64,000 bases of DNA. Origin: Nanobdellota archaeon. GTDB lineage: Archaea; Nanobdellota; Nanobdellia; Pacearchaeales; GW2011-AR1. Made by a program: the position numbers and the translations under genes. The notes beneath the pieces were generated by a model. The model was given only the letters and a program-made list of their open reading frames with translations, was not told the DNA's origin and did no database searches. Location of the stretch: assembly GCA_022561055.1 (NCBI GenBank), contig JADFRY010000001.1, forward strand, positions 57,025-121,024, read 5' to 3'. Shown piece by piece: positions 20,060 to 62,567 of the stretch (positions within the stretch are counted from its first letter, which is position 1; every line of letters begins with the position of its first letter).

Positions 20060-20140
20060 ACTTTGGAAAACCTCAAGAACTTTTAGTTCTTGGGGCCCAG
20101 AAAACTGATAAGTTTTCTGGGTTTGTAGGAGTCAAACCTA
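20060..20140. repeat. twin-hairpin element, copy 1 (paralog of 58343-58425)
   Basis: CTCAAGAAC-TTTTA-GTTCTTGGGG (20074-20092) and CCCAGAAAACT-GATA-AGTTTTCTGGG (20096-20121) then GGAGTCAAACC. Confidence 0.75.
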
Positions 20141-20413
20141 ACCAAAAGCCCTCCGATAATCTTCTATTTTTACAGATGAGACATTTTCTAGTTGATTCAG
20201 TTTTGATTCTATAATATCTGTGGATTTTTCTTCCGGCCAAGCCATTTTTAGCATTATCGCTTTAAGGCCGAAGGCAATTTCTTTTTCTTCGAAAGAAATA
20301 TTTTTTGCCCCTTGTTCTTCCATAGATTGTTTTGCTTTTTGCTCAATTTGTTTGAGATTCGTGTCTGGAGAAGAGGGCATTATTTTTACTATTACTGCTG
20401 CTATTCCCGGCAT
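20138..20413 (-). CDS. ef1b: translation elongation factor aEF-1 beta
   Basis: 91 aa; 'KIMPSSPDTNL..' and 'EEKEIAFGLKAIMLKMAWPE' match aEF-1beta family. Confidence 0.8.
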   Translation of the reverse strand: MPGIAAVIVKIMPSSPDTNLKQIEQKAKQSMEEQGAKNISFEEKEIAFGLKAIMLKMAWPEEKSTDIIESKLNQLENVSSVKIEDYRRAFG

Positions 20414-20531
20414 GATTTTGTGTATATTGGAAAGTTTTTAAAGATATGTTTGGCTTTCCTGTTTATATCTCTTATTGTATATGTCGTTTTTGTATCATAA
20501 TTCTTTTAAATGGCGGACGTTTTTGAGTGTT

Positions 20532-41714: not shown

Positions 41715-43736
41715 ATGAATAAACAAGCAAAGAATGCGTTGTTGGGTGTTTTGATATTTGGAGTAACTTTATCTATTTTATTTTTGATGAGTTTTGTTTT
41801 AGCTGATTTTGCTAGTTGGTCAGCTGTTGCAGACGAAGGAAATATTACAACATTTAATGAAGATACACCTACTCTTTTAAACTTCACTGTAAATAATACA
41901 GGCACAGCCCACAATATTACATCGGTTAATATTACTCTTCCCACTAGTAGTTTGTCATTCAGCGATGGTTTTTTAATGAATCTTATTGCAACAGGTAATG
42001 TGCATTTAATAGTTAACACTTCATTTGATGTTTCAACTGCAAGTGCAAATTGGTCAAATAATACTAATGAGGGTTTTGGGGACCTTATTCCAAATTTAAC
42101 AAGTGCGGAATTCCAAATTAATATTTCTGGCACAGCTCCGGGTAAATATAATATTAGCGTTAAGATAACAGATGATGCTGGCGCCCAAACAGAGCGTAAT
42201 TTAACTATTCATGTAAATGACACAACTACACCATATTCAGTTACTTTTATGCCAACAAGTCCTGCTCAAACTGCAAATCTTTCAGTGAGAGAGGTTACAA
42301 TTAATGTTTCAGCGAATGATACGCACAGCGGGATTGGATCATTTAATATATCTTTATATCTTACAAATGAAAGTTCTACTGCTAATGGTGCAGCAAATTC
42401 AAGCATAATACATTCTGGAGGAGCTTTAAATGATACAGGGTATGTAAATTTCTCTGGGTCTCATTTAGTAGATGGGTTTTATATAATTAATATAACGAGT
42501 ATCAATGATAATCCTGATCTTATAAATTTAGGAACCAATAACACAAATTCTACAGGAGTTCAAAGGAATATAACTATAGATGCGACTCCTCCAACTACTG
42601 TTATTTTTAACTCTGACACAGATTCTGGAAATTTCTCAAAAAGAGAAGTTATAATTAATGCTTCTGCTAATGCAACTTACACAGGTATAGATACATTCAA
42701 CATATCCTTATACCTAACTAATGGAAGCAGTGTTGCAAATACAAGCATGGTAGAAGCTAATCATGCTCTTAACGCTTCAGGATATGTGAACTTCTCGGGA
42801 AGCCATTTAGTAGATGGGTTTTATTTGATAAATGTAACAGGAATTAATGATACTGCAAATAATGTTAATGTAACAGGAGTTCAACTAAATATCACAATAG
42901 ATACAGTAGCCCCATCAATTACTTTAGCTAAATCAAGCAGTTCTGATAAAAATAAACTAGTTATAGATATTGCAATAACTGATTCAACTAGCGGGGTTAA
43001 TGGAATAGCCTGTACTGCAACTGGAGGAGGCACAGGAAACATAGCTATTGGAGGGGGTTCTGACACCAGCCAGACAGCTACTCAAGAAGGGTTAAGCTGT
43101 AGTAGTTCTAATGTTTATACGATAAAATGTAAAGACCACGCTGGAAATACAGGAAGCAAAGAAGGAACATTTAGTACGGATAGTTGCAGTGGTGGTGGAA
43201 GTCCTGGCGGTAGCGGACCTGGCCCTGGAGGCTCTGAGTGGATAACTACTTTTATTGAAGATGATGAACCACTTGAGACAAGAGGAAGTATTACTAAAGA
43301 ATTAGCTGAAAGACATAGAGTTAAGATTAATGTGGTTGGAGTAGTACATTATATAGGTATTATAGCCGATGGATTAACTGGAACTAGTGCAACAATACAA
43401 GTTTCATCTAGTCATGAGCAAGAATCAACATTAAATATTGGAGAAACAGCAAAGGTTGATGTAAGTGATCCTATTGATAACGTGTATGACTTAAGTATTA
43501 CATTAAACTCAATTGAGAGTAATAAAGCATCTGTTACTGTTTTACCACTACAAGAATCATATCAAGCAGGAGAGCCATCGATAACACCATCTCCGCCAGA
43601 GGAGGAAGAAGAGATTGTTCCTGGAGAATTAGCTGGAGCAGCTAGAAGCTTGGCTTGGCTATGGATCTTAATCGTAGTTATTGGGATAGTAGTTGTAGTT
43701 TGGGTTGTTGTTAGAAAGAGGCAAAAAGCTGGATAA
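41715..43736 (+). CDS. surface (S-layer-like) glycoprotein paralog 1: signal peptide, N-x-S/T-rich, C-terminal TM anchor
   Basis: Signal MNKQAKNALLGVLIFGVTLSILFLMSFVLA; >40 NxS/T sequons; C-terminal 'LAWLWILIVVIGIVVVVWVVVRKRQ'. Confidence 0.6.
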   Translation: MNKQAKNALLGVLIFGVTLSILFLMSFVLADFASWSAVADEGNITTFNEDTPTLLNFTVNNTGTAHNITSVNITLPTSSLSFSDGFLMNLIATGNVHLIVNTSFDVSTASANWSNNTNEGFGDLIPNLTSAEFQINISGTAPGKYNISVKITDDAGAQTERNLTIHVNDTTTPYSVTFMPTSPAQTANLSVREVTINVSANDTHSGIGSFNISLYLTNESSTANGAANSSIIHSGGALNDTGYVNFSGSHLVDGFYIINITSINDNPDLINLGTNNTNSTGVQRNITIDATPPTTVIFNSDTDSGNFSKREVIINASANATYTGIDTFNISLYLTNGSSVANTSMVEANHALNASGYVNFSGSHLVDGFYLINVTGINDTANNVNVTGVQLNITIDTVAPSITLAKSSSSDKNKLVIDIAITDSTSGVNGIACTATGGGTGNIAIGGGSDTSQTATQEGLSCSSSNVYTIKCKDHAGNTGSKEGTFSTDSCSGGGSPGGSGPGPGGSEWITTFIEDDEPLETRGSITKELAERHRVKINVVGVVHYIGIIADGLTGTSATIQVSSSHEQESTLNIGETAKVDVSDPIDNVYDLSITLNSIESNKASVTVLPLQESYQAGEPSITPSPPEEEEEIVPGELAGAARSLAWLWILIVVIGIVVVVWVVVRKRQKAG

Positions 43737-43939
43737 GAGTTTTATTAATATATTAAAATACCAATAGATAAATTGGATTTGGAACAACAAGAATCAAAAA
43801 CTTTTTGGAAATATAAAGATTGTATTGCTGCATAATGGAGTAAAGAAAGATTTATAAATAAAAGATTTCTAATTACTATTATAAACATTAGGAATAAAAG
43901 AGGATCAAACGATTGATGATACATACAAAAAAATTAGTG

Positions 43940-45649
43940 ATGAATAAACAAGCAAAGAATGCGTTGTTGGGTGTTTTGATATTTGGAGTAACTTTATCTA
44001 TTTTATTTTTGATGAGTTTTGTTTTAGCTGTTCATCAAGTTTCCTTTGAGGATTGGAGAGCAGATGTAGATATTTCCGCTTTCGGCATAGATGAAGATAC
44101 TTATGTAGTGATTAATGTAACAGTTAATGATACGGACACTGGCTCTTTGGCCAACATAACGCAGGTAAACATCACTTTCCCTGCCGGGTTTATAATCGCT
44201 TCAACTTTTGACCTTAATTCAAATAATACTGATGCCGTAGCTGTAAATACTAAGACAGTTGGAATTAGTTTCACTAATACAACTCTTGGTGGAAGGTTTG
44301 TCTTTAGTTGGGAGAACCTTACTGGAGGAGTAATACAGAATTCAACTAGCTTAACTCACTTTTTGTTTAACGTGACCTCTGCTAAACCTGGCAAGTTTAA
44401 CATTACTGTTAGAACACTGAATTTCTCGACTTTCATAGAGACTAACCTTACTATTGTAATCAATGATACAACTATTCCAGCTAACAAAACATTTGAAAGT
44501 GCTCGTTCGTTTGGTGCAGGCTCTAACAATTCTCTAAATCACATATCTATTAACCTTAGTGTTGGAGATAATGCTTTTGCAGATACTGTGAGGTTCTTCT
44601 TGTGGAACTCTACTAATGATGTTATAAATCAAACTAATATTACTGTTGATGGGAGAGGAAGATTTGCTTGGATTAACATTTCCACAGTATCAGACAACAG
44701 TTCTCAAGGTATTAGTGACGGCACTTATAGAATAAATGCAACTGCAAACGACACTACCGGAAATGACAATGTAACTAGTGTGAACGGCGTTTCTAGAACA
44801 ATAATTATAGATACAGTAGCCCCAGAAATTACTTTAACTAAATCAAGCAGTTCTGATAAGAATAAACTAGTTATAGATATTGCAATAACTGATTCAACTA
44901 GCGGGGTTAATGGAATAGCCTGTACTGCAACTGGAGGAGGCACAGGAAACATAGCTATTGGAGGGGGTTCTGACACCAGCCAGACAGCTACTCAAGAAGG
45001 GTTAAGCTGTAGTAGTTCTAATGTTTATACGATAAAATGTAAAGACCACGCTGGAAATACAGGAAGCAAAGAAGGAACATTTAGTACGGATAGTTGCAGT
45101 GGTGGTGGAAGTCCTGGCGGTAGCGGACCTGGCCCTGGAGGCTCTCAGTGGATAACTACTTTTATTGAAGATGATGAACCACTTGAGACAAGAGGAAGTA
45201 TTACTAAAGAATTAGCTGAAAGACATAGAGTTAAGATTAATGTGGTTGGAGTAGTACATTATGTAGGTATTCTAGCTGATGGATTAACTGGAACTAGTGT
45301 AACAATACAAGTTTCATCTAGTCACGAGCAAGAATCAACATTAAATATTGGAGAAACAGCAAAGGTTGATGTAAGTGATCCTATTGATAACGTATATGAC
45401 TTAAGTGTTACATTAAACTCAATTGAGAGTAATAAAGCATCTATTACTATTTTACCAATACAAGAATCATATACTCTTGAAGAGGAAGAAGCAGCACCAG
45501 AAGAGGTGGAAGAAGGACCTCCTGCCCTTGGTCCTGAAGAATTAGCTGCTGCACCTAGAAGCTTGGCTTGGCTATGGATATTAATCGTAGTTATTGGGAT
45601 AGTAGTTGTAGTTTGGGTTGTTGTTAGAAAGAGGCAAGTAGCTAAATAA
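43940..45649 (+). CDS. surface glycoprotein paralog 2 (identical signal peptide and near-identical C-terminal 290 aa to paralog 1)
   Basis: Start moved to ATG 43940 (MNKQAKN..); C-terminal block from TVAP.ITL.KSSSSDKNKLVIDIAITD onward ~95% identical. Confidence 0.6.
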   Translation: MNKQAKNALLGVLIFGVTLSILFLMSFVLAVHQVSFEDWRADVDISAFGIDEDTYVVINVTVNDTDTGSLANITQVNITFPAGFIIASTFDLNSNNTDAVAVNTKTVGISFTNTTLGGRFVFSWENLTGGVIQNSTSLTHFLFNVTSAKPGKFNITVRTLNFSTFIETNLTIVINDTTIPANKTFESARSFGAGSNNSLNHISINLSVGDNAFADTVRFFLWNSTNDVINQTNITVDGRGRFAWINISTVSDNSSQGISDGTYRINATANDTTGNDNVTSVNGVSRTIIIDTVAPEITLTKSSSSDKNKLVIDIAITDSTSGVNGIACTATGGGTGNIAIGGGSDTSQTATQEGLSCSSSNVYTIKCKDHAGNTGSKEGTFSTDSCSGGGSPGGSGPGPGGSQWITTFIEDDEPLETRGSITKELAERHRVKINVVGVVHYVGILADGLTGTSVTIQVSSSHEQESTLNIGETAKVDVSDPIDNVYDLSVTLNSIESNKASITILPIQESYTLEEEEAAPEEVEEGPPALGPEELAAAPRSLAWLWILIVVIGIVVVVWVVVRKRQVAK

Positions 45650-46347: not shown

Positions 46348-46418
46348 GGCCTTGTAGTCTAGTGGTAAAATATTCCCTTGACGTGGGAAAGTCCGCAGTT
46401 CAATTCTGCGCAGGGCCA
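46348..46418 (+). tRNA. tRNA-Val (anticodon GAC)
   Basis: GGCCTTG acceptor pairs CAGGGCC; anticodon stem TTCCC/GGGAA loop TTGACGT; T arm CGCAG-TTCAATT-CTGCG. Confidence 0.8.
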
Positions 46419-46675
46419 TTTATCATTTAAGTCTAATTCAATCAGTGGTGGGCTATATTTTCTTAATTTTATAGTCTCTTAGTTACTAACTAACTTACTT
46501 AGTAATTTAGTAAGAAAGATTTATATATATGTACTTGGTTTCTCTATCCGGAGAGGTCTAATGAAGAAATACTTACTTCTGATAGAGGATGAGAAACTTT
46601 GGGTGAAGTTTAAGTCTATTATAAAAAAAGATATTAATACAGAGCTTATTGAGATGATAAGGAAAAAGACTAAAG

Positions 46676-48565
46676 ATGGGGGTAAGAAGAATGATTAGAT
46701 CGTTTTGGAGTAGGAAAGGACAAATTAGTTTTTTTATAATTCTTGCTATTGTAATAGTTGCGGCAGTAGTCATCTTCTTTGCTTTGAGGACAAATATTTT
46801 TGTTACAGGGATTGACCCTGAGTTTGTGCCTATTTATAATTTGTATGGGGAATGTGTGAAGCAGGAAACTGAAAATGCTCTGAATTTGTTAGGGACCCAA
46901 GGAGGCAAGATTGATGTTGGAGAGTATGTTCCTGGAAGTGAGTATGCTCCTTTTTCATCGCATTTGAATTTCTTAGGTTTTCCTATACCTTACTGGTATT
47001 ATGTTTCTGGAAACAATTTAATTAAAGAAAATGTTCCTTCAAGAAATGATATGGAGCAAGAGATTTCAGAGTTTTTAGAAGAGAGAATAAACGAGTGTGA
47101 TTTTAGTAATTTTTATGAGCAGGGATTTTTTATTGAGTTAGATGAAAGTCCAAGAGTTAAAACTAAAATAGAAGATAATAAGGTTAGTGTTGATGTTAGT
47201 GCTAGTGTTGTTGTTTTCAGAGAAGATAAAAGCGCGAGGAAAAATTTGCACCGAGTTGTGGTAGAAAGCAAGATTGGTAAGTTTCACAAAATTGCAAGAG
47301 AGATTTATGACAAGGAAAAAAACGAGGCGTTTTTGGAAGAGTATGCTGTCGATGTTTTAAGACTTTACGCTCCCGTTGACGGTGTTGAAGTTCAGTGCAG
47401 TCCGAAAATTTGGAAGACGCAAGAGGTTGTTAATAATTTACAAGAAGGATTAGAAGCAAACATTAGGGCATTAAAACTTAAAGGAAAATATTATAATTTA
47501 AATGAGAAAGAGGATGAGTATTTTGTAATTGACCATAATGTTGACGAGTCAGTTAATTTTTTATATTTAAGAAATTGGCCAAGTAAAATTGAAATTACTC
47601 CTGCTAATGAGGAATTAATGATTGCAGAACCAATTGGAAACCAACAAGGTTTAGGAATTTTAGGTTTTTGTTATGTTCCTTATCATTTTGTTTACGACGT
47701 AAGCTTTCCTGTTTTGATACAAATACATGATGGATTAGAAATTTTTCAGTTCCCTATTTCTGTGATTATTGATAATAATCTGCCTAGAGAAGCAGAACTT
47801 TTGAGTTTTGCAGAGGAAGAGGATATTGATATATGTAGTTTTAAGGAAGGGAATGTGCAGGTTTATACTTTTGATAGTAATTTGAATCCTGTCGAGGCTG
47901 AAATAAGTTATAAGTGCTTTGATAGTATTTGCAGGCTTGGAGAAACAGAGAGCTCTGGGGGAGATGCTGTTCTTAATACAAATATTCCTTTATGTGTTAA
48001 TGGTTATATAATTGCCAAAGCCGAGGGATTTGTAGAGAAGAAGCAGTTGTTTTCATCCAATTCTGAAATAATTGCCGACGTTATCCTTGATAGAGAATAT
48101 GAAGTTGAGGTTGAATTAAGAGTCGCTGGGAAAGAGAAAAAAAATACAACTGCGATTGTTCATTTTAGCGGAGAAGACGGAACAGCAAGTGTAGTTTTGC
48201 CTGAAAATAATAAAGTTAAGTTGAAAGAAGGGCTATATGATATAGATGTTTTTGTTTATGGAGATTCGAGTGTTGTGATTCCAAGTTCTAGGAAAAGGCA
48301 ATGTTTTGAAGTGTCAAAAGGAGGTTTGTTTAGCTTTTTTGGGGCAACTAAAGAAGAGTGTATTGATATTGAAATCCCTGAAGTAAGAATAGATTACGCG
48401 TTGACAGGAGGAGGAAAAACAAATACTTATATTCTGGAATCTGAGTTGAAAAAAGGCAGAGTGGTTATAGATGTTAGTGAATTGCCTAAACCAAATTCAC
48501 TTGAACAGTTGCAATATAATTACGAAATATTTAATAGTCTAGGAGTTGAGATGGTGTTTATATGA
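46676..48565 (+). CDS. large extracellular protein with pilin-like class III signal (SRKGQ|ISFFIILAIVIV)
   Basis: 629 aa; N-terminal KGQ + hydrophobic helix; ATGA overlap with downstream giant ORF. Confidence 0.5.
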   Translation: MGVRRMIRSFWSRKGQISFFIILAIVIVAAVVIFFALRTNIFVTGIDPEFVPIYNLYGECVKQETENALNLLGTQGGKIDVGEYVPGSEYAPFSSHLNFLGFPIPYWYYVSGNNLIKENVPSRNDMEQEISEFLEERINECDFSNFYEQGFFIELDESPRVKTKIEDNKVSVDVSASVVVFREDKSARKNLHRVVVESKIGKFHKIAREIYDKEKNEAFLEEYAVDVLRLYAPVDGVEVQCSPKIWKTQEVVNNLQEGLEANIRALKLKGKYYNLNEKEDEYFVIDHNVDESVNFLYLRNWPSKIEITPANEELMIAEPIGNQQGLGILGFCYVPYHFVYDVSFPVLIQIHDGLEIFQFPISVIIDNNLPREAELLSFAEEEDIDICSFKEGNVQVYTFDSNLNPVEAEISYKCFDSICRLGETESSGGDAVLNTNIPLCVNGYIIAKAEGFVEKKQLFSSNSEIIADVILDREYEVEVELRVAGKEKKNTTAIVHFSGEDGTASVVLPENNKVKLKEGLYDIDVFVYGDSSVVIPSSRKRQCFEVSKGGLFSFFGATKEECIDIEIPEVRIDYALTGGGKTNTYILESELKKGRVVIDVSELPKPNSLEQLQYNYEIFNSLGVEMVFI

Positions 48566-51500
48566 TAAAGAAAAGGTTTGGAGAATTGTTTTTGGTTGTT
48601 GGAATTTTGATTTTTATAATTGCAGGTTTGGAATTTAGTGTTGCGCAGGTTGGTTCAGGTTATTCTTATTCTGATAAGGAATTTTCTGGGAGTAATAGAG
48701 GCAGTGCAAGTTTTGTCAATTATGGTGCACCTCCTGATTTTCAGAAATATTACTCTTCAGAGGGCAGACTCAGTACTTATTTTCCAGTTTTAGCCGATAG
48801 AGATAGTTGTTTTGCGAGGCAGGATATTTTATTACAAGTTGCTCCTGTCGGTTGTCAGCCAGCTGTTGTAAGAAGCGATTTATTAGCAGAGCAAAATGTT
48901 CCGGTATTTTGTCAGCTTGATGCTATAAAAGTGAATCCTTTGTTAGATATTAAGCAGATAAGGAGTATAAGGTTTAGGGGAGATTACCCTAAGGAAGTTG
49001 TCGGAGTTGGTTTTCATCCTGCGAGAGCTGCTTTGAGGACAAGAGATAAACTTTTAGGCAGTCCATTAATAAATAATATTGGATATGTCGTTGTTGTTTT
49101 GAAGAGAAACCCAAATGAAGAAGAATTGCCGAATTTTATTAATTTTACCTTAAGTGCGAGACTCGATTATTATTCTGGAAATGCTTTAGGAATTGGAAAA
49201 AGTGAGTTTTTGCTTAGGGAAGTTACAGACGCTGAATGGAAGTCTGAAAGGAATAGACAAAGTTTCTTTAAAGGACAATATTTTGCGAGGCTTATCGATG
49301 CAGACCCTAATTTTGCAACTATTGCTATTTATCATGGAGAAAGGAAAATTTCGACAACAAGAGTTCAAAGGGGAAAGTCTTCAGAAGATATTTATGTGCC
49401 TGGCCAATATTGCCAGGTAGCTTTGAAGCTTTCTTATGATGGTTTTGTTTCTGCAGACAAGATTGCTAAGATTCGGATTGATGATGAGATCATTGATGTT
49501 TATCGAGGAAGCAGGTTTCTGAATGGCAAATGTCAAGTAAAAAGTATAAATGGGGATAGTACGAATGGAACCGTAGAAATTTCTTGTGGCGGTTCAAGAT
49601 CATTTACTTTAGGATTACAAGCAAGATTCTTGAAAGTTGGAGACCTTGTTAATTACACGAAAGGAGATAGAGATTTATGGGAGATTACAGAAATTAATGA
49701 AAAGGAGAGACAATATAATATAACAAAATATTCTAATGAAGGTGTAATAGAAAGTAAGGTTGTCAATATTAGTGATGTTTTTCCAGAGGTTTCTGATGTT
49801 TTATTTGAGGCAAGATATACTGGCGAGACAAAAGAATATTTCAAAAAGGCAATTGATAGTTATGAGGAAGTAGTCGATAGTTATGCGCGTGAAAAAAAAT
49901 CTGAGGCACGTGATATTGAAGGAACACCAACTTATGGAGAGCTAGCTTTGGGAAAAGCAATTGAGCTTGCGTCAGATTTTAAGAAAGAAGCAACCGAAGC
50001 CCGTTTAATAGAGAAATTTATTGATGTTTATCCTGACGCCGATAATAGTTCTTTTTATACTAGCAAATTAAATGAATTATATACGAAAGACAGCAGCTTG
50101 GCAGGAACAGTTATCGATATAGACAATGACTTTAAGACAATTAAGTTGCTGGAGATTAGGATTCCTGCGAAAAGGTCGAGTGCCGAGTTTGTTTTAGGTG
50201 TTGAAAGAATAACTTTGCAGAGTGGAGAGAGTCATTCATTTATTAGTATAGGAGATAAAAATGGCTTAGTCATTATTGAAAAGGTAGAGTTTGATAAGGT
50301 TAAGGTAACTTCTTATTGTGGGGAAGATGATAGAGGTAATAGAGAGTGGAGTAAATCAATCAGAATAGGAGAGAGTGAAACTTCTTGCGGGGTTAGTTTG
50401 AGATTGGTCGATGTTAATCTTGAAGAGTTTGCAAGAGTAAAAATTAGCCCTGTCGTTAGAACGACTAGCGAGACTGAGTTTACGGTCGGTGTTGGAATCG
50501 AGAAAAGAGCAATCAAGCTTAGTCCTGACAAGACAAAAGAAAAGATTGAGAATTTGAACAAGAGCATTAAGAAGTGGGAGTCAATTTCAAATAATTTAGG
50601 TGATGTTGTCAGAGGTTTGAAAGGAGCTTGCTTTGCAACTGCCGGAGTTTTAACTGTGAAGAATTTCTTTACAGGATTTAGTGGAGAATCTTTGGCAAGA
50701 CAGAAAGTTATGCGAGGTTCTGACGGCTGGACTGAATGGTGTAAAGATAGACTGAAACCAAGAGGACAGTATGATACTTTAACTCAATGTTATAATGATA
50801 AAGCTTCACAAATAAAAAAAGATGTTGATGCATATGCGAAAGCAATCTCTCAATCAAATAAAAAGATGAAAGCAATTGAGGATGATAGTATAATTTCTAG
50901 TGGAGGATTTTTTGGAGGAGATAGTATTGATATCGATGAAGCTAAGAAAGATTTAGTTAAAGTATTAGAGAGTGAATGTTCGAGTGTTAGTACAGGACTG
51001 GGCGGAGAAAATGGTGATATCGGAAAGTTAATTGCTGGTGTAAAACTAGAAGATTTAGGATATCAACAATTAAGAGACATGTATTTTAATTGTCTTGTCG
51101 TTAAAGGAGGCCAGCTTTCTAGTGGTGGTGTAGGATTGAACAGGGCTAATGAAGACTTGAAGTTAATCGGTGAAAGGATTTTGGAGAGGAAAGAAACTTC
51201 ACAAGTTAGAGAAGGTCTCGGTGAATCATTAAAAAGAACTGGTTTAGAAGGTTTTAGAATTGTGTCTTATGGAGGGGAAAATGCAATAAGAGGCGAGTAT
51301 TATGGGGGGATTTTGAAACCAGGAGATATAAATAATGTTGATATTAATAATAATACACCTGCTCAAGTTATAACTTATGACGGGGATCCTTATCTTATAA
51401 TTTTACAAAAAACTAGTGTGGAGAATTATAGACCAGAGAAGATTTATGCATTGACGCGAGAGAGTAATTATAAAGAGGCCACTCTTGTCGAGGGCGCGCT

Positions 51501-53937
51501 TGCTTCAAAGATTAGGAGAATCCATATTTATAGAAAAATCGATGCTGGTTCTTATAATAATAGATTTGCCAAGGGCGAGGATGTTGTGAGGTATTATGAG
51601 AGAGAGCCATATAAAGGGACGCCGGCAATTGTGCCTATAGATGTTGATGAGGGATGGTATGTTGCAACAAAACAAACATTGCCTGGTTTCGGAAAAATAA
51701 AAGCATTTGAATCGTCAGGAAGACCGGTTAGTTTCTGGGTTTGTAATATCATGCAAGATAAAAAAGTAGGATTTTTCTCTCCTGGTTTTGGCGATGATAA
51801 ATGTGTGCAGTTTAATATGAATACAGGACAGCCTTTGGATAAATTCCCTGGTTTGAGCGAGCGAAAGACAAGACAGTTAGTCGATAGAGCAGTTCAGGCA
51901 TTAGAGGATGCAGCCAAAGAGACAGGGAAGAAAAAGGGAGAGCTTGTTAATATTCTTGGGAGACGTCTTAGTGTTGGAGGTTTTGCTGCGAGTATTCCTG
52001 GAACGCAATGCCAAGATTTTATGAGTCCTGAAGATTGTTTGAAGTTATTTAATGTTTGCGACCCTGTGATATGCCCAAGTTCGAGATGCAATTTGGGTGG
52101 TACATATTATGTTTCAGATGTTATTCAATCTGGCGTCATAGGGAGTGTTTTGTTATGCTTGCCTAATTTTAAAGAAGGTATACTAGTGCCTGTTTGTTTG
52201 ACAGGAATTAAAGCTGGAATCGATGGTTATTTGTCAATTTTGAAATCTCATCAGCAATGTTTGCAAGAGAATTTGGAAACCGGAAGAACAATAGGGATTT
52301 GTGATTTAGTAACTTCTGTTTATACTTGTGAGTTTTTCTGGAGACAGGCGGCGCCAGTCGCAAATGTTTTGTTACCGAAAGCTGTTGAGTTTCTTTACAC
52401 AGGCGGACAAGGACAGGCGAGAGGCGGAGGAGAGTATTTAACTGTTCAGACTGCCTGGGAAAATGCGCAAGACTCTGTTAATTTCTTTACACAAGAATAT
52501 GCAGCTAATTCTTTAGAAGCGTTTAGAGTCAGGTCTATTGCAGAAGCAGGCACAACTTTGTGTAGGGCTTTTGTTTCTGTTAAAGGCCCTAAGTCGTTTG
52601 AAACACTAATTGAGCCAGATTCGCCGCCGCAGTTCCATGCATGGTTTAGTTCAATACCATTTAGCGACGCGACTGTTCCTGCCACGGCTCAGTATAAAGT
52701 ATTTTATCATATTTTTTCAGGGGATGATTCTGGAGTTGCATTTAGCGTTTATTTGAAAGACCCTCCTGAAACTTCATTCTATTACACGACTCCGACGTTA
52801 ATTGTTGCTTCAGGGTTTGCACCGAGAGGACAGTTTGCTACAGAGACGAGAGACTTTACTGCGCCGGAAGGTTATAAGCAGTTATGCGTGAGGATAAATA
52901 ACAAGGAAGAGTGCGGGTTTAAACAAGTATCTTCTAGTTTCGCTCTTAATATTATTAGAGATGAATTTGTGAGTGATGAAATTGAAAGGGGAGATATAAC
53001 AAGAGAGAGTGAATGTATTTCAGGCAAATTGAATGTTGCGGCTTTGTTAAACCCAAATATCCAAGAGGCAGCACAAGAAGCAATTGACCCTGCCGTTTAT
53101 AATAGAGGAGTAGTTAGGATTTGTGCGACTGATAATCCAGGAAAGGGAACAGAGCCAGAGAGGTTTGTGGATGCTGGTTATTGCGATGACCAGAGAGTAA
53201 GATGCTGGGTCGATATGAATAGTGTTGAAAGAGCTCTTACAGTTGATAATATTGGAGAAAAAGAAAAAACTATAGAAAAATTAGAAGCAAGGCAGAAAGA
53301 GCTTTTGCAAGAAGGAAAGGAAAAAGAGTTTTATAGTGAGACGAAAGCTAGTGAGGTTAGTGAAAGGTTAAGAAGAGAGAAACTTTTCAGAGTCAGCAAG
53401 GATAATGTCGAAGGTAGAATTGATGAGATTGATAATGATTTAGAAAAAGTATTTTTTAATTATCAGAGGGCAGAGTTTCTTTTGTTGAAAGGAGATGTTT
53501 ATGCTAAGGTTGCTAAGAATTTATTGACAAAATTGCAGGGAGTTTTGGAGATAGATCCTTCTGGGGGAGTCGAGGATAAAAAAGAAAAAGAAGAAAATAT
53601 AGAATTGCTTTTTTCTGAGAGATTTAGTCTTAGAAATAGTGAAGATGATTTAATTATACGTTATAAAAAGTATCAGGATAGTACATTAGATAATACAGAG
53701 CTATTTGTTCCTAAGGATACTAAAGTTTTGGTTTATAAGACTAAGAATAATGTTGTTGCAGATTTGAGTAGAACAATTGATTTTTCTGGAAAAGGGGAGT
53801 CTGTCATAGCTGTGAAAGAAAATTCGATGTATTTACGGATTTTGGATGATTTTGATTTAGTTAGGTTAGACAATGCGAAGATTTTATTTAGCGAAGATGG
53901 TAGTCTTAGCCTAAAGTTTGATGGTTCTGGTAACTAA
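48562..53937 (+). CDS. giant extracellular/cell-surface protein (1791 aa), N-terminal signal-anchor, Cys-rich segment, C-terminal coiled coil
   Basis: Uninterrupted 5.4-kb ORF; N-terminal 'LFLVVGILIFIIAGLEF'; 'CDPVICPSSRCNLGG' Cys cluster. Confidence 0.6.
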   Translation: MIKKRFGELFLVVGILIFIIAGLEFSVAQVGSGYSYSDKEFSGSNRGSASFVNYGAPPDFQKYYSSEGRLSTYFPVLADRDSCFARQDILLQVAPVGCQPAVVRSDLLAEQNVPVFCQLDAIKVNPLLDIKQIRSIRFRGDYPKEVVGVGFHPARAALRTRDKLLGSPLINNIGYVVVVLKRNPNEEELPNFINFTLSARLDYYSGNALGIGKSEFLLREVTDAEWKSERNRQSFFKGQYFARLIDADPNFATIAIYHGERKISTTRVQRGKSSEDIYVPGQYCQVALKLSYDGFVSADKIAKIRIDDEIIDVYRGSRFLNGKCQVKSINGDSTNGTVEISCGGSRSFTLGLQARFLKVGDLVNYTKGDRDLWEITEINEKERQYNITKYSNEGVIESKVVNISDVFPEVSDVLFEARYTGETKEYFKKAIDSYEEVVDSYAREKKSEARDIEGTPTYGELALGKAIELASDFKKEATEARLIEKFIDVYPDADNSSFYTSKLNELYTKDSSLAGTVIDIDNDFKTIKLLEIRIPAKRSSAEFVLGVERITLQSGESHSFISIGDKNGLVIIEKVEFDKVKVTSYCGEDDRGNREWSKSIRIGESETSCGVSLRLVDVNLEEFARVKISPVVRTTSETEFTVGVGIEKRAIKLSPDKTKEKIENLNKSIKKWESISNNLGDVVRGLKGACFATAGVLTVKNFFTGFSGESLARQKVMRGSDGWTEWCKDRLKPRGQYDTLTQCYNDKASQIKKDVDAYAKAISQSNKKMKAIEDDSIISSGGFFGGDSIDIDEAKKDLVKVLESECSSVSTGLGGENGDIGKLIAGVKLEDLGYQQLRDMYFNCLVVKGGQLSSGGVGLNRANEDLKLIGERILERKETSQVREGLGESLKRTGLEGFRIVSYGGENAIRGEYYGGILKPGDINNVDINNNTPAQVITYDGDPYLIILQKTSVENYRPEKIYALTRESNYKEATLVEGALASKIRRIHIYRKIDAGSYNNRFAKGEDVVRYYEREPYKGTPAIVPIDVDEGWYVATKQTLPGFGKIKAFESSGRPVSFWVCNIMQDKKVGFFSPGFGDDKCVQFNMNTGQPLDKFPGLSERKTRQLVDRAVQALEDAAKETGKKKGELVNILGRRLSVGGFAASIPGTQCQDFMSPEDCLKLFNVCDPVICPSSRCNLGGTYYVSDVIQSGVIGSVLLCLPNFKEGILVPVCLTGIKAGIDGYLSILKSHQQCLQENLETGRTIGICDLVTSVYTCEFFWRQAAPVANVLLPKAVEFLYTGGQGQARGGGEYLTVQTAWENAQDSVNFFTQEYAANSLEAFRVRSIAEAGTTLCRAFVSVKGPKSFETLIEPDSPPQFHAWFSSIPFSDATVPATAQYKVFYHIFSGDDSGVAFSVYLKDPPETSFYYTTPTLIVASGFAPRGQFATETRDFTAPEGYKQLCVRINNKEECGFKQVSSSFALNIIRDEFVSDEIERGDITRESECISGKLNVAALLNPNIQEAAQEAIDPAVYNRGVVRICATDNPGKGTEPERFVDAGYCDDQRVRCWVDMNSVERALTVDNIGEKEKTIEKLEARQKELLQEGKEKEFYSETKASEVSERLRREKLFRVSKDNVEGRIDEIDNDLEKVFFNYQRAEFLLLKGDVYAKVAKNLLTKLQGVLEIDPSGGVEDKKEKEENIELLFSERFSLRNSEDDLIIRYKKYQDSTLDNTELFVPKDTKVLVYKTKNNVVADLSRTIDFSGKGESVIAVKENSMYLRILDDFDLVRLDNAKILFSEDGSLSLKFDGSGN

Positions 53938-54043
53938 TGAGTGCGGGGACTAAGTTTTATAGCGGAAGTTAAAAGCGGGGAGAATTGTCTGGGTTTTTTT
54001 GTTTAGGAAATAAATATAAATAACTCTAAGTTAAAGGTTTGAT

Positions 54044-54931
54044 ATGGATATAAGAAAAATAGGCGTTCATAACGGGTATTTTCATGCTGATGATGTTTTT
54101 GCAGTAGCAGTACTAAAATTAATTTATCCCAAAGCGAAAGTTGTTCGAAGTAGGGACCTGGGTATTTTAAAAAAATGTGATGTTCGTATTGACGTTGGTA
54201 TGAAGTATGATCCTAAAAAAGGAGATTTTGATCACCACCAAGGAAATATGAAAGAATCAAGGGAGAATGGAGTTCCCTATGCTTCGTTCGGTTTAGTATG
54301 GAAACATTTTGGAAAAAAACTTGTAGGTAACAACGAAGTCTGGGAGTATATTGACAAAAGATTTGTTCAACCAATTGATGCAAATGATACCGGTCACAAT
54401 ATATATGAGGCACAGATTGATCCACATACTACTTCAAAGGTCGTTGATGTGTTTAATCCTAGCTGGTTACAACAAGACGAAAAATTATATGATGAAGGGT
54501 TTTTTGAGATCTTACCCTTTGCTATGACACTTGTACAAAAAGAAATACAAAAAGCGGATGGAATCGTGAAGGCAAGAAGCATAGTTAGAGAAAAAATAAA
54601 AGAACAGGATGCAGAAAAGAAAGGTTTTTTATTTTTAGAAAAACATATTCCATGGAAAGAAGTTGTTATTAATGAGACAAGTGATGTCAAATATGTTGTT
54701 TCTTATCATGAAGGATATAGCACATGGGGTGTTGAAGCAGTTCGAAAAGAATTAGTCAGCTTTGAGAATCGAAAAGATTTACCCAAAGAGTGGGGTGGAT
54801 TAGCAAATGAAAAACTTGCCAGCGTTACTGGAATCAAAGATGCAGTGTTTTGTCATAAATCCCTTTTCGTTATTTCGGCGCGAAGTAAGGAAAGCGCTCT
54901 AAAATTAGTAAAAAAAGCCTTAAAAGACTAA
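54044..54931 (+). CDS. MYG1/UPF0160 family metal-dependent hydrolase
   Basis: 'GVHNGYFHADDVFAVAVL' and 'GDFDHHQG' signature. Confidence 0.6.
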   Translation: MDIRKIGVHNGYFHADDVFAVAVLKLIYPKAKVVRSRDLGILKKCDVRIDVGMKYDPKKGDFDHHQGNMKESRENGVPYASFGLVWKHFGKKLVGNNEVWEYIDKRFVQPIDANDTGHNIYEAQIDPHTTSKVVDVFNPSWLQQDEKLYDEGFFEILPFAMTLVQKEIQKADGIVKARSIVREKIKEQDAEKKGFLFLEKHIPWKEVVINETSDVKYVVSYHEGYSTWGVEAVRKELVSFENRKDLPKEWGGLANEKLASVTGIKDAVFCHKSLFVISARSKESALKLVKKALKD

Positions 54932-55933: not shown

Positions 55934-56866
55934 TTAGGAGGTCTTAGCCTTTCCTTTTGCCTCTATCTCTTTGAGCTTATCTTCAATTTCTAACTTTTCT
56001 ATGAGTTCTTTGTACCTGTTTCTGATTGTGACTTCTGTTATTCCTGCGACATCTGCGACTTCTCTCTGGGTTTTCTTTTCACTGTTAAGGAGGGCAGCAA
56101 CATATAGAGCGGCAGCCGCAATTCCAGCAGGACCTCTCCCTGATGTTAGTTCTGAAACGTCTGCTTTTTTTAATATTCTAAGGGCTTCATTTTGGGCTTT
56201 TGGAGATAGATGCAAGATTGAAGAGAACCTTGAGATGTAGTCTTTTGGTGAAGATGGTTTTACTTTTATTCCGAGTTTTCTTATGATAAACCTGTATGTT
56301 CTGCCAATTTCTTTTCTTGGAACGTCAGATGCTGTAGCGATTTCATCTAGAGTTCTTGGGATATTGTATGAACGACAAGCTGCGTAGATGCAAGCAGCAA
56401 TAACAGATTCCATTGAGCGTCCTCGGACAAGACCTCTTTGCAAAACAAAGTTGTAGACTCTGGCAGATTCATCTCTTACGACAGAAGGCAAGTTGAGGAA
56501 AGAGGCGACTCTTCTTAATTCAGCCATTGCAAGTCTTAAGTTTCTTTCTATTGATGTAGAGACTCTTTCTTGCCATTTTTTTAGTCTTAGAAATTTGCGA
56601 GTTTGACCAGATTCTAATTTGTAAATATCAGAGATTTCGCCGACGTTTGTTGTGAGTCCCTTATCAAATTTTTGTATTGATAGTGGTGCTCCGCCGCGTC
56701 CTTTTTTTTCATTTTTGTCAAATTGGCCACCACCTTCTTGGCCAGTGTCAACCATTTTTTCTTCAATAAGAAGACCGCATTCATTACAGATTATTTCGCC
56801 CCTTTGCTCATCGTGAGTAAGATGTATGCTTTCGCATTCCGGGCATCTTTTTATATAGTCGCTCAT
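55934..56866 (-). CDS. tfb: transcription initiation factor IIB (TFB)
   Basis: N-terminal Zn ribbon 'CPECES..CNECG', two cyclin-fold repeats, C-terminal HTH. Confidence 0.9.
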   Translation of the reverse strand: MSDYIKRCPECESIHLTHDEQRGEIICNECGLLIEEKMVDTGQEGGGQFDKNEKKGRGGAPLSIQKFDKGLTTNVGEISDIYKLESGQTRKFLRLKKWQERVSTSIERNLRLAMAELRRVASFLNLPSVVRDESARVYNFVLQRGLVRGRSMESVIAACIYAACRSYNIPRTLDEIATASDVPRKEIGRTYRFIIRKLGIKVKPSSPKDYISRFSSILHLSPKAQNEALRILKKADVSELTSGRGPAGIAAAALYVAALLNSEKKTQREVADVAGITEVTIRNRYKELIEKLEIEDKLKEIEAKGKAKTS

Positions 56867-56964: not shown

Positions 56965-57924
56965 TTAATAACTAGGAAGGCACATTAATTCGCCGGTAAA
57001 ACAAGAAGTGCAAGTTTGTTTGCTTTCTTGATCTTCAATATATTCACAATAAGAAGAGTCTTTTTTTATTATTGCTAGATTTCTGTAACAATCTGCTGAT
57101 ATAATCCCTGTAGTTATTTGTTCACATAGTTCTGGGTTTTCAGTCTTTTTTGCTATGAATCCTACACATATTTCTTGACTTTCTTTATATTTTAGTTCTT
57201 TACATTCCTCTACATTGAGTTTTCTTTTTGCTGTTATCTCACTTCTTTGGACTCTTTCTAAGTCTAGGTAGCAGGCCATTTGATCGATCTCCGTATTATT
57301 ATGGCAGTAAGATGGTCCAGCTAAGAGTATACTTACTTTTTTTGTGCAAAATGTTTTTTCTCTTTCATTATTTATCTTATAACAAAGATCGATTTCATGA
57401 GACCTCAAGGCTACTAAGAGATAACAACCGTCTTTTCTACCAGTATATTCTATTAATTCACATATCTCTGGATCTTCTAAATGTCGTGCTATGTGTTGGT
57501 AGCATATTTCTTTTAATGCATAAGGGTCATGTTCTAGTCCATCTTCTATTTTGTTGCAAGCACGATAATCTCTTGTCTTTTTTCCTATTTCTTCATAACA
57601 GAGGGATTGAGAACCAATTTTAAGCTGTTCACATTTCTTTAGATCTTGAGAGTTGATAGCAGAGTATATTTTACAGAGCTCTATCGACCATTGATCTTCA
57701 GAAAAGCCTTCACACTCTTCGAAAGAAATTTGGAGATCCTCAGAATCTATTGTTTCTAGATAACAAATTTCTTTTTCTCCAAGAGGCAGGGAATTACATT
57801 CAGCTTCTAGGTATTCAGATGCCGAATTGCTTATACCTATATTGTTGCTGATTAGAAAGAAAGATGTTAATCCTATGGCTAACAATCCCACTAATACTAG
57901 GATAATTATTAGTATACCTTTCAT
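56965..57924 (-). CDS. secreted cysteine-rich tandem-repeat protein
   Basis: Signal anchor then ~10 repeats of ~28 aa with spacing C..ICY/CY..I..D pattern. Confidence 0.45.
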   Translation of the reverse strand: MKGILIIILVLVGLLAIGLTSFFLISNNIGISNSASEYLEAECNSLPLGEKEICYLETIDSEDLQISFEECEGFSEDQWSIELCKIYSAINSQDLKKCEQLKIGSQSLCYEEIGKKTRDYRACNKIEDGLEHDPYALKEICYQHIARHLEDPEICELIEYTGRKDGCYLLVALRSHEIDLCYKINNEREKTFCTKKVSILLAGPSYCHNNTEIDQMACYLDLERVQRSEITAKRKLNVEECKELKYKESQEICVGFIAKKTENPELCEQITTGIISADCYRNLAIIKKDSSYCEYIEDQESKQTCTSCFTGELMCLPSY

Positions 57925-59963: not shown

Positions 59964-62567
59964 ATGCATAAAAAAAAGGTGATTCAGTTTTTTGTTTTAT
60001 TGTTTGTTTTTGCAGGTTTGTTAGCCATGACTCAATTTTCATATTTTGAGGGCATCGGTATTACTGGGTTTGCTATTTTTGAGGATTTTGGGAATAGTTT
60101 TAATAACGGCACCTTTGAGAACACAGTATATAATGGTTCTTCAGTGGTTTTATCTGGAAGTAATTTGAGTGGAAATTATACTAGTCAGGTTTTTGATGCT
60201 ACACAACTTGCGACTTGGAATAATATTAGTTTGGTTAGGAAGATTCCTAAATTTGATTATTTATATGTTTTTGATAATGATAAAGATGTATGGAGATCAT
60301 CTGACGATGGAACTAGTTGGGTTGAAATAAACAATAGTTATTTTTCTTTAGATATATATGGAATAACGTCAACTTCAGATGGGTTGTTTGTAATTAAAAA
60401 GGATGGGCAAGTTCATAAATCAACAGATTCTGGTGTTACATGGTCATTAGTAAACAGTGGAGATATAACTCAAGAGCCAAGAGGATTAACTTCTGACTCG
60501 AGTGATAATTTATATGTCGTTGCTAAATCTAAACAAATATATCAGTCGATAAATGCAGGAGCAAGTTGGACGTTAGTAAATAATTCTTATACGGTTACGA
60601 ATAATGCTAATCAGTATGGGATTGGAGAAGAATTAGTAAAAACTAATTTAACTTATCAATATAGGAATTGTTCTTTGGCTAATTGTGGCGGTGAAAGTTT
60701 TATCGGTCCCGACGGCACCGGAGATAGTTTTTTTACAGAGACGGTTAGGGACATTAGTTTGACAAGTCAGTATTTTCAGTATAAAGTTTATTTTAGTAGT
60801 GATTCCCCTGATGTTTCTCCTTATTTAGAAAGTGTGACTATTGATTATTCTTTATTGAGTTCTGGAAATGCAACTGTTCCGACAGTTAATATAGATTATC
60901 CTTCATATAGCTCAACATACGGTGATAATGAAAGCTTAACATTAAACTTTTCTGTTATTTCTGATAATTTGGATTCATGTTGGTATACTTTAAATAATGG
61001 TGAAACAAATGAAACAATAGTTAATTGTGAGAATACAACTTTTAGTGTTGCTGAAGATGGAGTTTATAATATTTCTGTTTATGCTAATGAAACTGTTTTA
61101 GGCTTAGAGGGTTCTGATAGTTTGCTATTTTATGTGAACATCGGAAAACCTAGTGTTCATCTTACGTCTCCCCAGCATAATTATTATATTAATGCAACAG
61201 AAGTTAATTTTATTTATATTCCGTCTTCTGGTGTGGCTTTAGATAGATGTAAGCTCTGGGGAGATTTTACTAGTAATTATTCTTTAAATCAAACAAATTC
61301 AAATGTTATTTCTGGAGAGCAAAGTTCTTTCATATTGAATTTAAGTGAAGGTACTTATTTATGGGCTATTTATTGCTCAGATAATATAAATTCAGCTATT
61401 ACTGGCAACAGGACTCTTATAGTAGATATTACTCCTCCTGTAGTTGATATTACTGAACCAACAGGCACATATTCTAGTTTTGACATACCTCTCGATTTCG
61501 ATGTTAATGATTCTAGCCCTGTCGGACCGTGTGTTTATAATATTAGTGCTTCAGGAAGCGGGGTTAGTATAGAGATTATTATAATTGATCCTCAATGTGA
61601 TGATGAGATTATTAGTGTAATAACTGTAGCGACTGATTATGATTTGACTTTGACAGCAGATGATTCAGCAGGAAATTCTGGTTCTGACCAAACTAGTTTT
61701 TCAGTTTCTGGCGGAGGTTCTAGCGGTGGAGGTTCTAGCAGTAGTGGAGGTTCTCCAGGTTTAACAGGTCCTGCAGAAATTAGTTTTTCTGAATTAGGGG
61801 AAATTAATATGAGAAGAGGGCAGAGTGAATTTATTGCACTAGAAGTTTTAAATTCAGGCTCTAGATTTTTAAATAATTGTAAGCTTTTGGCAGAAGGTAT
61901 TATGGAAAGTTGGGTTTCTAACAAGCAAGTTGAATCTTTGAGTTCAGGACAAAAAGTAGAATATATATTCAGTTTGAACGTGCCTGTTGATGTCGAGCCA
62001 GGAAAATATTCTTCTATTCTTACAGTTAGTTGTAATGAAGTTAGTGTTAGTACTTCCTTGAACGTAAATGTTATTGTAGGAGATTTTGATTTTGTTGTTT
62101 TGAGTTCTCAGAAAGAGGGAACTAAACTTATTGTTAGTTATAGTTTGGAAGAACTTTTTGGAAAAGATCAAGATATAACTTTGAGTTATAAATTAGTTAA
62201 CGCTAATGAATTTGTTTTACTTGAAGGAGAAGAAGTTATTTTTATTGAAGCAGGGAAGAAGAGTAATTTGAAACTTAGCTTTGAACTTCCAAAGAATGCA
62301 GTTGGAGAGCTAAAGTTAATTATGTCTGCTTCTAACGGGAGAGAGAATATTGTTATTGAGCAAGATGTTATTTTAGAGGCTGGAAGGGGTTTAGCTGGTT
62401 TCGTAATCTCGGAAGCTAATCGAAGGACGCTTTCTATTGCAGCCATTGCTATATTTGTTTTATTGTCTTTGTATTTTGTTTTGAAGTTTATTTATAAACA
62501 TCATGAAAGGATAACTAAGCATGGAGAGAGAGGAAGGCACTTTATTAAAATTAAATTGAAGGAGTAA
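59964..62567 (+). CDS. large surface glycoprotein (867 aa) with signal peptide, NxS/T-rich, Gly/Ser linker, C-terminal TM anchor
   Basis: Signal 'VIQFFVLLFVFAGLLA', many sequons, 'GGGSSGGGSSSSGGSPG', C-terminal 'IAAIAIFVLLSLYFVLKFIY'. Confidence 0.55.
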   Translation: MHKKKVIQFFVLLFVFAGLLAMTQFSYFEGIGITGFAIFEDFGNSFNNGTFENTVYNGSSVVLSGSNLSGNYTSQVFDATQLATWNNISLVRKIPKFDYLYVFDNDKDVWRSSDDGTSWVEINNSYFSLDIYGITSTSDGLFVIKKDGQVHKSTDSGVTWSLVNSGDITQEPRGLTSDSSDNLYVVAKSKQIYQSINAGASWTLVNNSYTVTNNANQYGIGEELVKTNLTYQYRNCSLANCGGESFIGPDGTGDSFFTETVRDISLTSQYFQYKVYFSSDSPDVSPYLESVTIDYSLLSSGNATVPTVNIDYPSYSSTYGDNESLTLNFSVISDNLDSCWYTLNNGETNETIVNCENTTFSVAEDGVYNISVYANETVLGLEGSDSLLFYVNIGKPSVHLTSPQHNYYINATEVNFIYIPSSGVALDRCKLWGDFTSNYSLNQTNSNVISGEQSSFILNLSEGTYLWAIYCSDNINSAITGNRTLIVDITPPVVDITEPTGTYSSFDIPLDFDVNDSSPVGPCVYNISASGSGVSIEIIIIDPQCDDEIISVITVATDYDLTLTADDSAGNSGSDQTSFSVSGGGSSGGGSSSSGGSPGLTGPAEISFSELGEINMRRGQSEFIALEVLNSGSRFLNNCKLLAEGIMESWVSNKQVESLSSGQKVEYIFSLNVPVDVEPGKYSSILTVSCNEVSVSTSLNVNVIVGDFDFVVLSSQKEGTKLIVSYSLEELFGKDQDITLSYKLVNANEFVLLEGEEVIFIEAGKKSNLKLSFELPKNAVGELKLIMSASNGRENIVIEQDVILEAGRGLAGFVISEANRRTLSIAAIAIFVLLSLYFVLKFIYKHHERITKHGERGRHFIKIKLKE

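Follow-up and report, generated by a model that had tools for sequence, protein, structure and literature searches.

Layout of the cassette

The 64,000-nucleotide stretch analysed here, from now on the window, belongs to a contig (JADFRY010000001.1, positions 57,025 to 121,024 of the forward strand; assembly GCA_022561055.1) of a Nanobdellota archaeon, and our subject is a surface-protein cassette built around two of its genes, P1 and P2. P1 (46676-48565, plus strand) encodes 629 residues, or 624 with the NCBI start at Met6 (46691), and P2 (48562-53937, plus strand) encodes a giant extracellular protein of 1791 residues that is Sec-secreted and has no membrane anchor of its own. The genes lie on the same strand and overlap by 4 nucleotides in an ATGA junction; their coordinates, first given in an earlier sequence-only reading of this DNA, were verified, and the junction recurs in 53 of 78 near and 43 of 62 distant loci. 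That reading was equally right that the DNA comes from a DPANN archaeon, a TFIIB gene being present at 55934-56866, that an A24 prepilin peptidase is encoded at 18379, and that both proteins are extracellular. P2 is 100% identical to a hypothetical protein held at NCBI under 'Nanoarchaeota archaeon'.

The cassette is larger than was noted at first. Upstream of P1 are a conserved 45-residue open reading frame (ORF; 46561-46698) and a palindromic operator-like site (46495-46505), and the small ORF, P1 and P2 would be transcribed from one promoter. A T7 tract (53994-54000, plus strand), a candidate archaeal terminator, would mark the end of the operon, and beyond it, after a TATA-like element, comes MYG1 (54044-54931), a gene unrelated to the cassette; with the tract and MYG1 in that place, no immunity gene was found immediately downstream of P2 in the window.

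Two different export signals

Do P1 and P2 both carry pilin-like signals, as the sequence-only reading proposed? Signal types were judged on N-termini across homologs rather than on single sequences, with 120 close and 83 distant homologs for P1. The P1 protein begins with a class III leader peptide (residues 1-15, ending in SRKG; 46676-46720, plus strand) for which prepilin-peptidase cleavage is predicted between G15 and Q16, followed at once by an N-terminal hydrophobic helix that would be retained (residues 16-37, QISFFIILAIVIVAAVVIFFAL; 46721-46786, plus strand), an anchor or assembly helix of the pilin type and the single hydrophobic segment of the protein. A FlaFind-like motif abuts this helix in 104 of 120 homologs, and the strict FlaFind pattern is present in 102 of the 120 close and 70 of the 83 distant ones. 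Within those 104 sequences position -2 is Lys or Arg without exception (104/104), position -1 is Gly in 90 and Ala in 14, and position +1 is Gln in 103, with leaders of 4 to 40 residues across the family. Conservation reaches 88% at G15 and 99% at Q16, and Q16, I22 and A24 are all conserved at 96% or more. Mean column entropy is 1.31 bits in the helix against 1.51 in the P1 ectodomain and 2.23 in the P2 signal peptide; a helix more conserved than its ectodomain is what would be expected if it is retained and functional. Judged on these N-termini, P1 has a genuine class III (prepilin-type) signal that is conserved family-wide, and it would be cleaved by an A24 peptidase. The peptidase of the window (18379-19206, plus strand; Pfam PF01478, Peptidase_A24, E=4.8e-11) has both catalytic Asp contexts, D22 in VQDLRTKEI and D84 in AGGDAKLL, and is encoded in a pilus locus 27 kb upstream of the cassette.

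The N-terminus of P2 is of another kind. Residues 1-28 (48562-48645, plus strand) form a Sec-type signal peptide with a predicted signal peptidase I site, SVA/Q (26-29). By inspection, the N-termini of 120 plus 40 homologs have the n-h-c layout, with small-x-small before Q, A or S and endings such as FVSA/Q, LASA/Q and FVGA/Q; a class III motif was found in 2 of 120 P2 homologs by the relaxed definition (abutting the helix) and in 5 of 120 by the strict FlaFind pattern, and the KKRFG/E of the window copy is idiosyncratic to it. This N-terminus is the least conserved part of P2 (22% identity), as expected for a signal peptide that is discarded, and it holds the only hydrophobic segment of the protein, which has no other anchor. 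On the evidence of its homologs, P2 is an ordinary Sec-secreted protein and is not pilin-like. The sequence-only reading had itself named ordinary Sec signal peptides as the observation that would undo its claim, so the P2 half of that claim falls and the P1 half stands; of the A24 processing that it proposed for both proteins, P1 could be a substrate and P2 very probably is not.

A conserved scaffold with exchangeable cargo

Most of P2 is strongly conserved, in three blocks. Block 1 (residues ~60-330; 48739-49551, plus strand) has a mean identity of 45-75% per 50-residue bin and 6 invariant Cys; block 2 (residues ~640-760; 50479-50841, plus strand) is at 51-72% and is modelled by AlphaFold2 (AF2) as long helices with a predicted local distance difference test score (pLDDT) of 70-90; block 3 (residues ~1010-1560; 51589-53241, plus strand) is at 59-78% and has dozens of invariant columns. 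Over the whole protein 30 of 32 Cys are invariant, and 10 of them fall within residues 1150-1256 (52009-52329, plus strand), the Cys-rich hydrophobic core of block 3, which corresponds to the Cys-rich block pointed out before. In 35% of sequences C806 and C844 are present together, a pairing that points to an accessory disulfide. Residues 1170-1345 (52069-52596) reach 70-78% identity, with many invariant Gly, Cys and Pro, and are moderately hydrophobic; they may serve as an interface for oligomerisation or as an element that switches conformation. Block 3 ends in the boundary motif CWVDMNSV (53203-53226, plus strand), which as CW[LIV]D..S[V] is present in 115 of 120 P2 homologs.

After this motif identity drops sharply, to 8-27%, and large insertions appear. 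In the window the variable C-terminal tail (residues 1556-1791, 236 residues; 53227-53934, plus strand) consists of a helical stalk (~1564-1661), where the helical C-terminal region of the sequence-only reading is now modelled as helices, and a beta-rich module of ~130 residues; no Pfam domain was found in it. Across the family the tails are 129-925 residues long, with the helical stalk first and complete divergence after it. Those of homologs carry SLT, M23, NlpC/P60, M15, trypsin, metalloprotease (M10), GDSL or pretoxin-HINT (PT-HINT) domains, and the enzyme domains are all downstream of the CW.D..S boundary. At one sister-clade locus, L084, a 678-residue P1-like gene overlaps the gene of a 2251-residue P2 homolog that is 34% identical to P2 in block 3 (E=3e-78) and whose tail has an SLT lytic transglycosylase domain (E=1.1e-8). 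Other divergent P2 homologs have SLT with M23, NlpC/P60 with M23 or, in one homolog, pretoxin-HINT after the boundary, and SLT is also present in proteins P0396-P0399. A census of 31 non-redundant sister-clade tails gave SLT in nine, an M15_4 carboxypeptidase in one and a GDSL acylhydrolase in one; a first search of the window clade gave one trypsin and one TSP_3 domain. By its position behind the boundary, SLT is accessory C-terminal cargo and not part of the P2 core, and the conservation profile divides P2 into a conserved scaffold of ~1550 residues, a stalk of helices and a tail that is hypervariable. The peptidoglycan hydrolases of the sister clade imply bacterial targets, and peptidoglycan hydrolases have been reported as prominent in Nanoarchaeota (PMC12352652).

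At L084 two more overlapping genes (388 and 254 residues; 18806-20721) follow the giant gene. The 254-residue gene occurs in 6 distant loci and the 388-residue gene in none, and as conserved cassette members both were set aside.

Neither P1 nor P2 has a Pfam or NCBIfam hit, in searches with whole proteins and with sub-regions, and a PDB sequence profile search returned nothing significant for either. The P1 ectodomain (46826-48562, plus strand) divides into an N-terminal half of alpha/beta type (~51-370) and beta-sandwich domains in tandem (~390-629), and all 10 of its Cys are invariant, with five predicted disulfides. Its AF2 model has a mean pLDDT of 85.4 and begins with helices at 13-41 and 51-74, then four short strands at 96-118, an order with which the canonical pilin fold (a long alpha1 packed on an antiparallel beta-sheet) would be compatible. 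Against the PDB, Foldseek gave weak, generic beta-sandwich matches for P1 with TM-scores of 0.16 or below (Gram-positive pilins, SlaB and the SusC NTE domain), no match for its N-terminal half and no substrate-binding-protein fold. For P2 residues 620-1791, modelled by AF2 with a pLDDT of 69, no Foldseek match in the PDB or among the BFVD viral structures had an E value below 0.02, the best being a single ApaG/immunoglobulin (Ig)-like sandwich. A viral-fusogen-like or known-adhesin fold for P2 was considered and dropped as unsupported by the same Foldseek searches. In one protein, P0375 (1115 residues), positions 265-619 of the P1 profile, its C-terminal half, are fused behind an unrelated N-terminal region of ~750 residues without an obvious class III start.

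Distribution, coupling and rate of evolution

P1 and P2 are large unannotated families, all named matches being Pacearchaeota, Woesearchaeota or Nanoarchaeota. P1 is encoded in at least 570 species-representative genomes, its profile collects 6354 clusters (50% identity) at E<=1e-3, and P2 homologs range from 1433 to 3220 residues. The two genes are tightly coupled: P2 lies directly 3' of P1 in 76 of 76 close and 59 of 59 distant loci (135/135), and the identities of P1 and of the P2 core are correlated at r=0.945 across 110 loci. The synteny is also conserved, with the cassette placed amid housekeeping genes in the order DUF2116, cassette, TFIIB and then a metallo-beta-lactamase (MBL)-fold gene. 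The cassette is vertically inherited and core to the Woese-/Pacearchaeota (Nanobdellota).

Nor do the two proteins evolve quickly. Between the window and one Pacearchaeota genome P1 is 55% and P2 50% identical, against 50% for phosphoglycerate mutase and 55% for the MBL-fold protein, and the median identity of marker proteins within the phylum is 47.4% (10.64898/2026.05.13.725050). By these identities P1 and P2 are as conserved as cytoplasmic enzymes and are not a fast-evolving adhesin set, the last ~240 residues of P2 being the sole variable part. N-glycosylation sequons are depleted in both, with 1 in P1 against 3.7 expected and 8 in P2 against 10.1 expected. A fast-evolving contrast to P1 and P2 is an 867-residue secreted protein of the window (59964-62567), which shares its syntenic position with an 817-residue protein of a related locus (L001, 18797-21250) and has no BLAST similarity to it.

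Two smaller observations belong here. A tRNA-Val(GAC) gene (46348-46418) separates the operator/promoter of the cassette from the DUF2116 zinc-ribbon gene. In one metagenome-assembled genome (CAZVKQ01) two copies of P1, 58% and 55% identical to that of the window, are on two contigs (L012 and L030); these are either a paralogous second cassette or the product of a mixed bin.

A clade-specific small ORF and its palindrome

Ahead of the small ORF is an operator-like array of TAGTAA/TTACTA half-sites (46478-46515, plus strand), with the perfect palindrome TTACTTAGTAA at 46495-46505 and a one-mismatch copy at 46483-46493. The sequence TTACTNAGTAA has its sole copy in the 64 kb here, with 0.08 expected. 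The palindrome is found within 200 nucleotides upstream of the small ORF at 47 of 70 related loci, against 3 matches in 1.23 Mb elsewhere (~1300-fold), and control palindromes gave 0 upstream matches. Palindrome and small ORF also occur together (46 of 68 against 1 of 81 loci; Fisher p=2e-20), and they do so within the near clade (45 of 66 against 1 of 11; p=3e-4), p-values that overstate independence because the loci are phylogenetically related. As a regulon marker across the window the palindrome behaves as chance predicts (6 one-mismatch matches, 4.65 expected), with no sign of control of the pilus locus.

Next to the array is a BRE (B recognition element)/TATA-like element (AAGAAAGA-TTTATATATA; 46512-46529, plus strand), 32-41 nucleotides 5' of the small-ORF ATG, which reads as a candidate promoter, and a Shine-Dalgarno-like GGAGAGGT follows at 46550-46557 (plus strand). 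Related loci have similar A-rich plus TTTATATA/TTTAAATA elements at about equal distance.

The small ORF itself (46561-46698, plus strand) encodes 45 residues, MKKYLLLIEDEKLWVKFKSIIKKDINTELIEMIRKK and a basic tail, is the first cassette gene in the clade and overlaps the start of P1. It is present in 70 of 81 near-tier loci at 42-53 residues, with 10 invariant positions and the consensus MKKYLLLIEDEKLWEKFK..I.KDINSEI.ELIKEKV, which makes it the most conserved cassette element of the clade; the sister clade lacks both the small ORF (2 of 73) and the palindrome. In its beta-alpha-alpha pattern the encoded protein is like ribbon-helix-helix proteins. This pattern and the co-occurrence with the palindrome are what point to a DNA-binding role: the protein could be a dimeric DNA-binding autoregulator, and it probably binds the palindrome TTACTNAGTAA beside the promoter and regulates the operon.

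The pilus locus and other surface proteins of the window

The A24 peptidase lies in a complete type IV pilus-like locus (6984-19206) that also encodes a T2SSE ATPase (769 residues), a 718-residue membrane protein without a Pfam match and nine small ORFs. The nine have class III signals of the form [KR][KR]G/x, and several are Cys-rich and free of sequons. In these signals 5-10 polar residues follow the cleavage site; in P1 the hydrophobic stretch starts from +2. That the local pilins share the [KR][KR]G site with P1 and that an A24 peptidase is present support class III processing of P1.

Two tandem paralogous Ig-like proteins are encoded at 41715-43736 (673 residues) and 43913-45649 (578 residues), with near-identical signal peptides, a Pro/Glu/Ala-rich linker and a C-terminal transmembrane anchor. 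They have 37 and 24 sequons, respectively, 3-4 times the shuffled expectation, and on that composition they are plausibly better candidates for S-layer glycoproteins than P1 and P2. A 319-residue secreted or anchored protein encoded at 56965-57924 (minus strand) has 22 Cys (6.9%) in repeated C-x-x-x motifs and no family match.

A proposed P1-P2 complex and its rivals

How might an anchored and an anchorless protein encoded so closely together act? The reading that we favour, at a probability of roughly 0.55, is that P1 is processed by an A24 peptidase and anchored through its helix, either in the membrane or as part of a type IV filament, that the Sec-exported, anchorless P2 docks on P1, and that the variable tail of P2 is shown to neighbouring cells. 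The A24 peptidase would remove the P1 leader after Gly15, and the retained helix Q16-L37 would hold the disulfide-bonded ectodomain of ~590 residues in the membrane or filament. P2 would be exported by Sec and lose its signal peptide, leaving it no anchor, and would dock on P1 to give an extracellular complex of ~270 kDa, in which the distal tail, borne on scaffold and stalk, would contact or attack neighbouring cells. The location of the complex (pilus or membrane), the role of the regulator and the target we infer.

Several observations weigh against this reading. Pilus genes do not accompany the cassette: an A24 or ATPase gene lies within 9 kb of it at none of 80 loci. The P1 of the window (RKG/QISFF) departs from the strict FlaFind pattern at one position, +4 (Phe); type IV pilins are absent from the top Foldseek/PDB matches of P1, which leaves any pilin fold past the N-terminal helix conjectural. 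The stretch of P2 from about residue 1170 to 1345 is modelled by AF2 at a confidence below 50 despite having the highest conservation. Among 61 window-clade tails the census gave SLT in none, a metalloprotease in one and DUF4347 in one, so that any function in attack is carried over from what the sister clade shows. For the small ORF, no Pfam or NCBIfam match was found and the best hit of a PDB profile search was an unrelated designed protein (E=0.044); a ribbon-helix-helix identity, when tested, gained no statistical backing from profiles, Pfam Arc having matched 1 of 34 members at E=0.2.

Of the other explanations the best survivor is that P1 and P2 are co-transcribed and act separately, P2 being released freely as an exoenzyme, a toxin or an adhesin, while P1 would be an independent, pilin-anchored binding protein of the bindosome kind. 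P2 does have a normal Sec signal and no anchor, archaeal non-pilin binding proteins with class III signals are known (10.64898/2026.04.22.720090), and the interaction between the two is one that we infer. We nevertheless regard separate action as unlikely: the adjacency at 135 of 135 loci, mostly with 4-nucleotide overlaps, in two clades at ~30% identity and with tight co-divergence, exceeds usual co-regulation, the enzyme-level conservation of a ~1550-residue scaffold is hard to explain for a diffusing carrier, and P1 is without a substrate-binding-protein fold.

Somewhat less probable again is a two-component S-layer or envelope scaffold like SlaA/SlaB of the Sulfolobales, in which P2 would form the lattice and P1 would be its stalk, anchored in the membrane. 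Heavy glycosylation and rapid evolution are usual in S-layer proteins, whereas P1 and P2 are sequon-depleted and conserved at the level of enzymes, and the adjacent 673- and 578-residue Ig-like proteins fit the role better. A cassette that is universal in its lineage and placed among housekeeping genes, and an operon in which a large secreted protein is joined by an anchored one, would suit an S-layer; a hypervariable tail that bears enzymes or toxins, and a dedicated operator, are unlike a constitutive lattice. The beta-sandwich half of P1 weakly matches SlaB (8qox_B, E=1.5e-4, probability 0.94), but the match is generic, limited to the beta-sandwich and at TM-scores of 0.12-0.15, and P2 has no match.

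That both proteins are type IV pilin-like, A24-processed pilus-tip adhesins or pseudopilins is very improbable. P1 fits, and in the P2 of the window the string R-F-G-E precedes the hydrophobic segment, but P2 homologs have canonical Sec n-h-c regions with small-x-small sites and next to no class III motifs, and their N-termini vary as discarded signal peptides do.

The favoured complex of an anchored P1 and a docked P2 leaves room for the role in host interaction suggested by the sequence-only reading, in part: a contact role is plausible, given the peptidoglycan hydrolases, proteases and pretoxin-HINT domain in sister-clade tails, and the picture of a typical variable giant adhesin is not borne out. 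A bolder extension, speculative and in our judgement doubtful, is that the Woese-/Pacearchaeota have in P1-P2 their main machine for host contact, one that defines the lineage: a presentation or delivery device dependent on a type IV filament, functionally akin to TcpB-TcpF or CofB-CofJ but with a ~1550-residue scaffold of a new fold, in which the Cys-rich 1170-1345 block would serve oligomerisation or envelope penetration and the exchangeable tip would set the target, bacterial cell walls included. Were this so, archaeon-on-bacterium episymbiosis would be directly testable.

Few uncultured archaea are as abundant as the Woese-/Pacearchaeota, and the cassette is one of few large surface systems conserved throughout the group. 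A giant family previously noticed solely for an occasional transglycosylase domain can now be treated as a defined apparatus with testable parts, which offers handles for antibodies, pull-downs, labelling in cryo-electron tomography, cleavage assays and electrophoretic mobility shift assays. What makes the difference is the constant translational coupling of the giant to a pilin-type partner, the exchangeable place of the transglycosylase on a fixed scaffold, and the candidate regulator with its operator that one clade has gained. Cargo typing could predict from genomes which lineages target bacteria, and the ~1550-residue scaffold and the N-terminal half of P1, having no structural relatives, are good targets for structure determination.

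Comparison with known systems

The nearest functional precedents for P1-P2 are minor pilins of modular build and the pairs CofB-CofJ and Vibrio cholerae TcpB-TcpF, in each of which a large minor pilin displays a partner exported by Sec. P1-P2 resembles these pairs in that a Sec-secreted partner is encoded alongside, the docking of P2 on P1 being a proposal. The modular type IV minor pilins, such as PilB of S. sanguinis and CofB of enterotoxigenic Escherichia coli (PMC8179133), combine, as P1 does, a class III signal and hydrophobic helix with bulky non-pilin domains, a beta-sandwich in the case of CofB. Unlike them, P1 is archaeal, unrelated in sequence, without a detected pilin fold and not encoded in a pilus operon, and P2 is ten times the size of CofJ or TcpF.

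Polymorphic toxins and contact-dependent effectors such as Rhs and CdiA, a concept reportedly due to Zhang, Aravind and colleagues, are the model for the scaffold/cargo logic: as in the P2 family, the N-terminal region is conserved, the boundary is fixed, and the enzyme or toxin modules at the C-terminus can be exchanged. P2 differs in lacking RHS/YD, filamentous-haemagglutinin or other known delivery repeats, and most of its tails have no recognisable toxin. SlaA/SlaB, too, comes from a two-gene operon, whose products are one large secreted protein and a smaller one that is anchored and of beta-sandwich type; there the anchor is a C-terminal transmembrane segment, whereas P1 has an N-terminal pilin-type helix, and P1 and P2 are sequon-poor, disulfide-rich and highly conserved, with a variable, enzyme-bearing tail.

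Within the archaea, class III signals are known from non-pilin proteins, the substrate-binding proteins of the Sulfolobus bindosome (10.64898/2026.04.22.720090, PMC4858521). Like P1, these are large, globular and extracellular, use a prepilin-type signal and a retained helix as anchor, and are encoded away from the assembly genes; P1 differs in having no substrate-binding-protein fold, no ABC transporter neighbours and a giant partner.

P2 itself very likely belongs, at the superfamily level, to the large SLT-domain proteins (fam00969) that are described, in the parts of Castelle et al. 2021 (PMC8204110) drawn on here, as specific to Woese-/Pacearchaeota, extracellular and up to ~3000 residues long, and as first noted by Rinke 2013 and Castelle 2015. 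Lineage restriction, size range and extracellular location agree, and SLT is found in 9 of 31 sister-clade P2 tails; the P2 of the window and its whole clade are without the SLT domain (PF01464). The giant protein family has thus been seen before and is not categorically new, and those parts of PMC8204110 make no mention of a class III partner, of coupling, of a scaffold/tail boundary or of an operator. What appears not to have been described before is the obligate class III partner family, the fixed boundary between scaffold and cargo together with an SLT-free clade, the conserved cores free of structural relatives, and the clade-specific small ORF with its operator.

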